Assembly: GCF_022846255.1 (NCBI RefSeq)
Contig: NZ_AP025682.1
Direction: 5' to 3' (one strand)
DNA from: Escherichia coli
GTDB lineage: Bacteria; Pseudomonadota; Gammaproteobacteria; Enterobacterales; Enterobacteriaceae
Length of the DNA stretch: 64,000 bases
In this document: piece by piece, positions 39,301-42,300 of the stretch
Layout of the letters: each line of letters starts with the position of its first letter
Numbering within the stretch: position 1 is the stretch's first letter
Position numbers: made by a program

Positions 39301-42300
39301 TGTATGCTTTTTGTTCAGGTCAGAGGGGGACTGTGTGGACAGCGGCTTTTGTCTCCGGGCATTCACGCCTGAACGATGAATGCGATTTTCAGCAATATTT
39401 GTCTTTGTGACACTCTCTGGTTGAGAAGCTAATGCGCGCCCCTGTTTCCACAGAGAATGTACTGCACCCATTTTGTTGGACGATGAAATGGAATAGCCCC
39501 TGATATGTCAAAGCCAAAATACCCTTTTGAAAAGCGCCTTGAAGTCGTGAATCACTACTTCACTACTGATGATGGTTACAGGATCATCTCGGCACGTTTT
39601 GGTGTCCCCCGAACCCAGGTCAGGACATGGGTTGCCCTCTATGAAAAACATGGAGAAAAAGGTTTAATTCCCAAACCTAAAGGTGTTAGTGCTGATCCAG
39701 AGTTGCGTATTAAGGTCGTGAAAGCTGTGATCGAGCAGCACATGTCCCTTAATCAGGCTGCTGCTCACTTTATGCTTGCTGGTAGTGGTTCTGTAGCCAG
39801 GTGGCTGAAGGTTTATGAAGAGCGCGGAGAAGCTGGTTTACGCGCGCTCAAGATTGGCACCAAAAGAAACATTGCAATATCAGTTGATCCAGAAAAAGCG
39901 GCATCAGCATTGGAGCTGTCAAAAGACCGACGTATTGAGGATCTTGAAAGGCAAGTTCGATTTCTTGAAACGCGGCTTATGTATCTAAAAAAGCTGAAAG
40001 CCTTAGCTCATCCCACGAAAAAGTGAAAGTACTCAACGAGCTAAGGCAGTTTTATCCTCTTGATGAGCTTCTCAGGGCTGCGGAGATACCGCGCAGTACG
40101 TTTTATTACCATCTAAAGGCTCTCAGCAAGCCTGACAAGTATGCGGACGTTAAAAAGCGTATTGGTGAGATTTATCACGAGAATAGAGGCCGATACGGAT
40201 ACCGTAGGGTAACGCTGTCTCTTCATCGAGAAGGGAAACAGATTAACCATAAAGCTGTTCAGCGCCTGATGGGAACCCTCTCACTTAAAGCAGCGATTAA
40301 GGTCAAGCGATACCGCTCTTACAGAGGAGAGGTAGGGCAAACCGCCCCTAATGTTCTCCAAAGAGATTTCAAGGCTACGCGGCCAAACGAGAAGTGGGTT
40401 ACCGATGTTACTGAATTTGCAGTCAATGGGCGCAAGCTGTATTTGTCTCCAGTAATAGATCTCTTCAACAACGAAGTTATTTCTTACAGCCTTTCGGAAA
40501 GACCAGTGATGAACATGGTTGAGAATATGCTCGATCAGGCATTCAAAAAGCTTAATCCTCACGAGCATCCTGTTCTGCACTCTGACCAGGGATGGCAGTA
40601 TCGTATGAGAAAATATCAAAATATTCTTAAAGAACATGGTATTAAACAAAGCATGTCCAGAAAAGGCAATTGTCTGGATAATGCTGTGGTGGAGTGTTTC
40701 TTTGGAACCTTAAAGTCGGAGTGTTTTTATCTTGATGAGTTCAGTAATATAAGCGAACTGAAGGATGCTGTTACGGAATATATTGAATACTACAACAGCA
40801 GAAGAATTAGCCTGAAATTAAAAAGTCTGACTCCAATTGAATATCGGAATCAGACCTATATGCCTCGTGTTTAACTGTCCAACTTTTTGGGGTCAGTACA
40901 GAATGAGGCTTGCCATCAGCCGAAACATCAGTATTCCACGCCATACAGACGGCGCCTGACCATGTGCTGATGCAGGTAAAATGTTTCACTACAACTGTTC
41001 GGGTTGCTATGCAACGAAACAGCGATTCTCACGATCTTTAACTGCAACGTTTTTCCGCCTGAAAGCTGACTGCCTCCTGCTGAGGTGGGAGGCTATGATT
41101 CAGTGCGTTTATAGTCTCCGGGGTATGCATGTACCGGAGCATACCATTTCTGGTGGATAACAAGCCGGCACATTCAGACTGCAGTGAAGATGGAGGCACC
41201 TGGTTGTGAAGAACGTTTCTGCACGTGGCTGCTTCGCATCATCAATGGTATTCATACCCGCTCAGAAATGACCGGGTGCTGAAGCCCTCCGTTATCGCGC
41301 AGTATAATGACGTATATGATCTGTGGACGAGTGAGCGGCGTGCCTGATGTACGCCGCTATTACTGTATTTTACCACAGGGCTGGTTTTCTGCTGCCAGCC
41401 CTGTGGTTCTCAGACATCAACTGTGAGCGGCATCAACCGATGTACGGTATGCCATAAGCACGTACTGATCCATCAGATTTGTCAGTGGTTCACTCTGACC
41501 CTGACGTGCAATGATCCATTGCTCCAGATCTTTTTCTGATTTGTGTTTCAGGTTTTTCGTCCAGTCGTCAAGGCTGTTTCCGGTCATTAAGTCAAGCCAG
41601 CAGAGCCAGACCAGTTTGAGACGTAACTCCGTGCCGCCAAACTGACGGAAGAGGCTGATCAGTTTGTTTGCCAGAGAATGTTGCTTCAGGCGCTCACATT
41701 CAGACAGCAGGATCCCTTCCAGCATCGGATGATGAACCAGCAGGTGTTCGCTGGTGCATAAATTCACCACCAGATCATCATCCAGGGACGGGGAGCTCCG
41801 TTTGTCCGGACCATAAATCAGCCGGTGCAGACTCTGGGGAACGATGGCAATCTCCGGTTTTTCGCCATTGAATGACACCCACCCGGGCGTCAGATTATGG
41901 AAATAGTAGATATTCGGATGACACACGCCCCATGATACGGCGTGCCGGGTGAAGCCGGTCAGCCATTTCTGGTAGTTTTCATGGAGCAGCTCGTAACGGG
42001 TCTGATACTGTTGTTTCATTTTCATATTCCTCACGGGGGATAACAGGCAGCAGAGCGCCGCCGGCAGGCCGGAGATTGCGTCTGCTGTGGGCGAAGGGTT
42101 AGTGGTTAAAAATTACGGACGGGACTGTGCAATACGCGCCTGCAGCCAGGCTTCCACTTCACTTTTCAGCCAGCGGGAGCTGCGCCCCATTTTGATGGGC
42201 GCAGGAAAGCCCCCATCTTTGATGAGTTTGTCAAACCACTTATCGGTTAGGCCGGTCAGTTGAGTGATAAACGCCATGTCGACCATCTGGTCATCCATCA

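Follow-up and report, generated by a model that had tools for sequence, protein, structure and literature searches.

An insertion sequence with intact ends, intact reading frames and a short direct repeat on both flanks raises the question of whether it arrived recently in the strain that carries it, whether it can still transpose, and whether it broke a gene on arrival. We addressed this question for the IS150 copy in a 64-kb stretch of an Escherichia coli genome (64,000 nt of contig NZ_AP025682.1, hereafter the window). We are highly confident that positions 39458-40900 of the window are a complete IS150 (IS3 family, IS150 subgroup), which was inserted into a non-coding spacer of a decaying, prophage-like island with duplication of a GAA target, and which was inherited rather than being private to this strain. 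The copy itself is already known, being annotated in RefSeq at this site in, e.g., strain SMS-3-5, and RefSeq labels this very copy 'IS3-like element IS150 family transposase, programmed frameshift'.

Identity and termini of the element

The element occupies 1443 bp on the plus strand (39458-40900) and is bounded by TGTACTGCACCC on the left and GGGGTCAGTACA on the right. Its alignment with the IS150 copy of K-12 MG1655 (NC_000913.3 3720633-3722075, annotated 'insertion sequence:IS150') contains 10 substitutions and no indels, with 1433 of the 1443 positions identical (99.3%) and the same ends, and its identity to RefSeq-annotated copies is 100%. The diagnostic SNPs relative to K-12 are located at element positions 45, 107, 227, 356, 476, 652, 707, 1155, 1168 and 1367. 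Nothing contradicts the identification. The left terminal repeat (IRL, 39458-39488) starts with 5'-TGTACTG and the right one (IRR, 40870-40900) ends with CAGTACA-3', thus showing the 5'-TG...CA-3' ends expected of the group, and both are the same as the K-12 ends. They form the longest inverted pair returned by the repeat finder, and are imperfect, as 22 of the 31 positions match (71%), with the outer 7 nt being perfect. The first-pass annotation had described an intact 1443-bp IS150 with imperfect terminal repeats at 39455-40903; both the alignment to the reference and the repeat finder agree with this description, and the interval, which comprises the element and both flanking GAA triplets, is exact. 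By megablast, IS150 is found in 2864 of the 5426 complete E. coli genomes, at a median of two places per genome, and the 64-kb window contains this one copy only.

Every sequence-level feature used to assign an element to the IS3 family, IS150 subgroup, was found in this copy. IS911, IS2, IS3 and ISSau2 share with it the orfA/orfB organization, an OrfAB made by -1 frameshifting, a DDE domain, TG...CA ends, target duplications of 3-4 bp and copy-out/paste-in transposition (PMC5771124, PMC10379815), but they are other subgroups or sequences, whereas the window element is IS150 itself. The IS150 of E. coli B REL606, known from the long-term evolution experiment, is the same element and also generates 3-bp duplications (PMC11708052).

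Reading frames and the predicted frameshift signal

The element contains two overlapping genes on the plus strand. According to the ORF list, orfA (39505-40026), equivalent to InsJ/InsA, encodes a helix-turn-helix (HTH) DNA-binding protein of 173 aa (HTH_28, 1.7e-23) whose sequence is identical to that of K-12 InsJ (InsA). The second gene, orfB (40023-40874), equivalent to InsK/InsB, lies in the -1 frame relative to orfA and encodes 283 aa with the DDE catalytic domain (rve, 1.1e-28; rve_2; HTH_21); its product differs from K-12 InsK by three substitutions, S48G, R197K and G268S, so that 3 of the 10 nucleotide differences alter InsB. A slippery heptamer A AAA AAG predicted to direct -1 programmed ribosomal frameshifting is located at 39987-39993 (+), where the codons in the orfA frame are CTA AAA AAG. 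A conceptual -1 slip at this heptamer yields an open OrfAB of 456 aa, in which Pfam detects HTH_28 (1.7e-23), HTH_21, rve (1.1e-28) and rve_2. By motif inspection, we assigned its catalytic residues as D301, D361, E397 and K404, i.e. D(59)D(35)E followed by K, which fits the description of the IS150 subgroup as having an N-terminal HTH, a C-terminal DDE domain and a D(57-60)D(35)E motif followed by K (PMC5771124). No record matched the 456-aa fusion protein exactly.

A stem-loop predicted to stimulate frameshifting lies at 40000-40047 (+), beginning 6 nt past the heptamer, with a perfect 10-bp stem formed by GCCUUAGCUC (40000-40009) and GAGCUAAGGC (40038-40047). The RNA fold of 39980-40060 has an energy of -20.4 kcal/mol (z = -3.1 versus shuffles). 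A stimulatory stem-loop has been described for IS150 (PMC4066793), and its frameshifting is cited as being about 50% efficient and stimulated by the stem-loop (Vogele et al. 1991, as cited in PMC10379815 and PMC4066793). The predicted heptamer and stem-loop, which are the same as in the K-12 copy, appear to agree with this reported frameshifting. Hence the earlier reading of orfA and orfB as undamaged frames joined by an A AAA AAG frameshift site is borne out by the position of the heptamer and the open product of the slip.

Target-site duplication and reconstruction of the empty site

The element is flanked by GAA on the left (39455-39457) and on the right (40901-40903), with the junctions reading ...CCACAGA-GAA-TGTACTGCACCC...GGGGTCAGTACA-GAA-TGAGGC.... 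We joined 600 nt of the left flank, up to and including its GAA, to 597 nt of the right flank (after the second GAA) and used the resulting 1197-nt sequence as the query for an empty site. Strain AH50 matched it unbroken at 100% identity over the 1197 nt, many further genomes did so at 99.8-99.9%, and the empty site was present as one piece in 1315 of the 5426 complete E. coli genomes. At the base level, the empty-site junction has a single GAA and is otherwise colinear with the window. Because AH50 joins the same flanks through one GAA, the GAA repeats are, on this comparison of sequences, a genuine target duplication. The 3-bp GAA duplication claimed in the first-pass annotation is thus confirmed by comparison with genomes that do not have the insertion, the empty site having been reconstructed with one GAA. 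Formally, the identity at the two junctions extends to the 6 bp AGAATG, where the neighbouring bases match the IS ends by chance; taking the ends of the element to be those canonical for IS150 gives a duplication length of 3 bp. Duplications of this length also accompany the IS150 insertions that arose in the long-term evolution experiment (PMC11708052), and those of the IS150 subgroup are 3 bp, occasionally 4 bp.

Distribution and age of the insertion

To count the occupied sites, we used window positions 38858-41500, which span both junctions, as the filled-site query, and accepted matches over at least 80% of its length. The filled site was found in 135 of the 5426 complete E. coli genomes, and the best 40 of these 135 matches were all 100% identical. 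The insertion is therefore polymorphic, with 135 filled versus 1315 empty sites, i.e. the filled state accounts for about 9% of the genomes with this site (135/1450). The carriers include SMS-3-5, MS6198, Ecol_881, strain 144, ECONIH1 and an O7:H15 strain named ST70, and come from sources that include humans, chickens, dogs, wastewater, river water, a pangolin and a dolphin. Sequence types are those given in papers: SMS-3-5 is ST354, Ecol_881 is ST648 and strain 144 is listed as ST38 (PMC9174282), and MS6198 is ST648, phylogroup F (PMC8281228).

The window is closest to this group of carriers: apart from one private patch, no more than 5 SNPs in about 40 kb separate it from SMS-3-5, MS6198, ECONIH1 or strain 144. 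Outside the same patch, only 4 SNPs and one homopolymer of different length set AH50, with its empty site, apart from the window in 41 kb, and because of this near-identity the insertion is young relative to the divergence of the island haplotype. On the other hand, it is old enough to have diversified, since some carriers have SNPs within their IS150 (39699 A>T at four loci, 39564 and 40148), an orfA truncated by a 1-bp insertion (LR130562.1), or an IS2 insertion. The last of these is in ECONIH1, where an IS2 is nested in this IS150 (L009 21925-23153; window position ~40770) and the transposase is a pseudogene. In the O7:H15 strain ST70, the core genes left of the island (~20.8-29 kb) are about 1.4% diverged from the window, whereas the island with its IS150 (~30-52 kb) is nearly identical, a pattern suggestive of recombinational transfer of the tagged island from one chromosomal background to another. 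The ST70 island also has extra IS100 and IS911 insertions (L008 15194-16995 and 24009-25177), of which the IS100 splits the GTPase gene.

Two other accounts of how the element came to lie here have to be set against an inherited insertion with a genuine target duplication. According to one, the match between the GAA flanks is due to chance, and the element was brought in by homologous recombination or within a larger composite segment. A match of 3 bp between flanks has a chance of 1 in 64, and the K-12 reference copy, which lies in the hokA/sokA locus (L003 1124-1133, 2577-2586), indeed has unmatched flanks (GTA / AAC), in contrast to the clean GAA of the window copy in its CP4-44-like island. 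However, the AH50 site is 100% identical with exactly one GAA and no other rearrangement, and the window has no second IS150; we rejected a coincidental repeat on the empty-site comparison and give it hardly any credence. According to the other, the insertion is very recent and private to this strain, the product of a currently hopping IS150. The intact duplication, frames and ends, and the near-isogenic empty haplotype in AH50, are what such an event would leave, but a 3-bp duplication can persist indefinitely and has no dating value, the insertion is at the same base in 135 complete genomes of several sequence types, hosts and continents (PMC9174282; PMC8281228), and some of the carrier copies have had time to acquire the lesions described above. 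Given these 135 filled sites, we rejected a strain-private event as extremely improbable. The preferred reading thus remains an insertion inherited by many carriers, and the description of it as recent holds in the population sense, as seen from the near-identical empty-site strain AH50, but not as an event private to this strain. More generally, the age of an insertion cannot be read from the integrity of its target duplication and ORFs alone. The filled or empty site, with its exact junction, provides a presence/absence marker for one CP4-44-like island haplotype; this island lies close to the his/O-antigen recombination hotspot, and the marker could be useful for following recombination among ST354, ST648 and related lineages. 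Its biological importance is small, IS150 being among the best-described insertion sequences of E. coli.

The target spacer and the split ORF

Besides IS150, the stretch 37590-41416 contains only pseudogene fragments in the RefSeq annotation, in line with the earlier description of a roughly 3.7-kb region poor in ORFs. It consists, in order, of 1.1 kb of unannotated island DNA, a ~470-bp IS21 remnant, a 312-bp spacer, IS150, a 513-bp spacer and the 3' end of a gene for a 200-aa protein. The 1.1-kb segment (37578-38676) has no annotated gene, Rfam hit or Pfam-bearing ORF, and is conserved in about 2000 genomes, with an identity of at least 95% in about 1900 E. coli records. The remnant (38677-39145, minus strand) is an internally deleted IS21-family element, comprising the istB 3' end and an istA fragment with about 90% DNA identity to intact IS21 (alignments to positions 1100-1283 of the intact istB query and 1-88 of the istA query); RefSeq names the corresponding pseudogenes 'AAA family ATPase' and 'IS21 family transposase'. 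A landing of IS150 at or within the terminus of this remnant was considered and rejected: the IS21 homology stops at ~39145, which leaves 312 bp before the insertion point, and a search for matching terminal repeats found none.

In the empty site, a mechanical ORF of 86 codons on the minus strand (6426-6686 in the empty-site locus L001) spans the insertion point, and IS150 splits it into a 3' part (39283-39457) and a 5' part (40904-40989). Pfam had no hit for the hybrid ORF remnant, six spacer ORFs or the two flanking hypothetical genes, and in this neighbourhood matched the alpA-like gene alone (Phage_AlpA). In an Rfam scan that covered the whole window, 37.6-41.4 kb was free of hits, the sole ones being the His leader, STnc240 and STnc490 elsewhere, and a promoter scan of the empty spacer returned no promoter-like site. 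Transcription of IS150 runs toward the 3' end of the adjacent minus-strand gene, and there is consequently no nearby gene downstream that it could switch on.

Effect and activity of the insertion

The first-pass annotation had suggested that the element may have disrupted a gene or regulatory region. The 86-codon ORF is indeed cut, and one might suppose that the insertion knocked out a functional island gene or regulatory element, either this ORF of 71-86 codons, which is annotated in S10EC as the 71-aa hypothetical protein WP_001327829.1, or a so far unrecognised RNA located downstream of the alpA-like module. However, S10EC is the only genome with this annotation among the empty-site genomes inspected, the differences across two diverged homologues, 6 amino-acid changing versus 3 silent, show no sign of selection, blastn of the ORF against an island whose homologous spacer is 75% identical gave no match, and the Pfam, Rfam and promoter scans of this unannotated spacer found nothing, in a neighbourhood already broken by the IS21 remnant. 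We thus regard a knock-out as unlikely and the ORF as marginal. Still less likely, in our view, is a non-neutral insertion, in which cutting some short unrecognised gene or transcript that lies downstream of the alpA-like regulator changed how stable the island is or how it is expressed, and the tagged island, with its dynamin/RdcB/patatin module, was then favoured and spread by recombination across unrelated lineages (ST354, ST648, ST70 and reportedly ST38). The insertion most likely had no consequence, and we infer that it is most likely selectively neutral. A further alternative concerns the element rather than its target, namely that the copy, despite its intact appearance, has lost all or most of its ability to transpose and persists by descent alone, as a fossil. 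In a public assembly index, the exact InsB allele (G48, K197, S268) was placed at this site in 28 of 28 contigs, with constant flanking genes (the 383-aa gene on one side, the 200-aa gene and the AlpA-like gene on the other), although this sample is small and favours long contigs; likewise, no identical copy occurs among 72,556 plasmids, although 1601 of them carry IS150, the best match being 99.4%. Against this, the three InsB substitutions are conservative and lie outside D301, D361 and E397, and K-12 has the same terminal repeats, frameshift signal and InsA. On balance, a dead or attenuated copy seems improbable, while deserving clearly more weight than the alternatives above; the copy is probably transposition-competent, and its present-day activity is plausible because its structure is intact. 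The earlier statement that it is probably still active can accordingly be kept as far as the intact structure makes activity plausible, but the single location of the InsB allele and the plasmid result tell against the stronger wording. The IS150 copies of REL606 have been seen transposing in real time, whereas the window copy is an inherited polymorphism with no daughters seen in the 28 contigs.

By analogy with the family, OrfA would be made by normal translation and the OrfAB transposase by a -1 ribosomal frameshift at A AAA AAG, aided by the downstream stem-loop. OrfAB would bind the terminal repeats and convert the element through a figure-eight into a circle (copy-out), which would integrate at a target cut with a 3-nt stagger (paste-in), with repair duplicating GAA (PMC10379815, PMC5771124). 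The insertion occurred a single time, on one island haplotype, and has been passed on since, with at least one probable move by recombination onto a different chromosomal background; it is therefore a lineage marker common to ~135 complete genomes rather than a strain-private trait.

The surrounding island

The island lies beside the his/sbcB region, and with the SMS-3-5 annotation mapped onto the window it appears to be CP4-44-like. Its minus-strand genes are cbtA/cbeA, yeeS, yeeT, an antirestriction gene and a DUF932 gene, followed by cargo genes. At 30887-36342 (-), the SMS-3-5 RefSeq names are patatin-like phospholipase, RdcB-family, dynamin-family protein and GTPase; this segment is identical across the carriers inspected and may be a defence or stress module. 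The same annotation places a gene for a hypothetical protein of 383 aa at 36426-37577 (-) and the one for the 200-aa hypothetical protein at 41417-42019 (-), and the alpA-like gene with the Phage_AlpA match is at 42113-42319 (-). About 165 nt upstream of the latter, a run of 12 G (42484-42495) varies by a few bases among near-identical strains, which could be a homopolymer assembly error or a phase-variable tract upstream of a regulator.

The private patch mentioned above covers cbeA, yeeT and yeeS (26966-27829), where 37 differences (~4%) distinguish the window from SMS-3-5, MS6198, ECONIH1, strain 144 and AH50; it looks like a gene conversion from a paralogous CP4-type island. SMS-3-5 has an extra IS3-family element (L006 3633-4861; window ~53344-53508) over the start of a shorter annotated aspartate ammonia-lyase gene, and the window is without it. 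At the O-antigen/gnd end, window positions 1-3458 do not align to SMS-3-5 and 34 mismatches cluster at 2-6 kb, a pattern consistent with a recombinational switch of serotype at the rfb-gnd hotspot.
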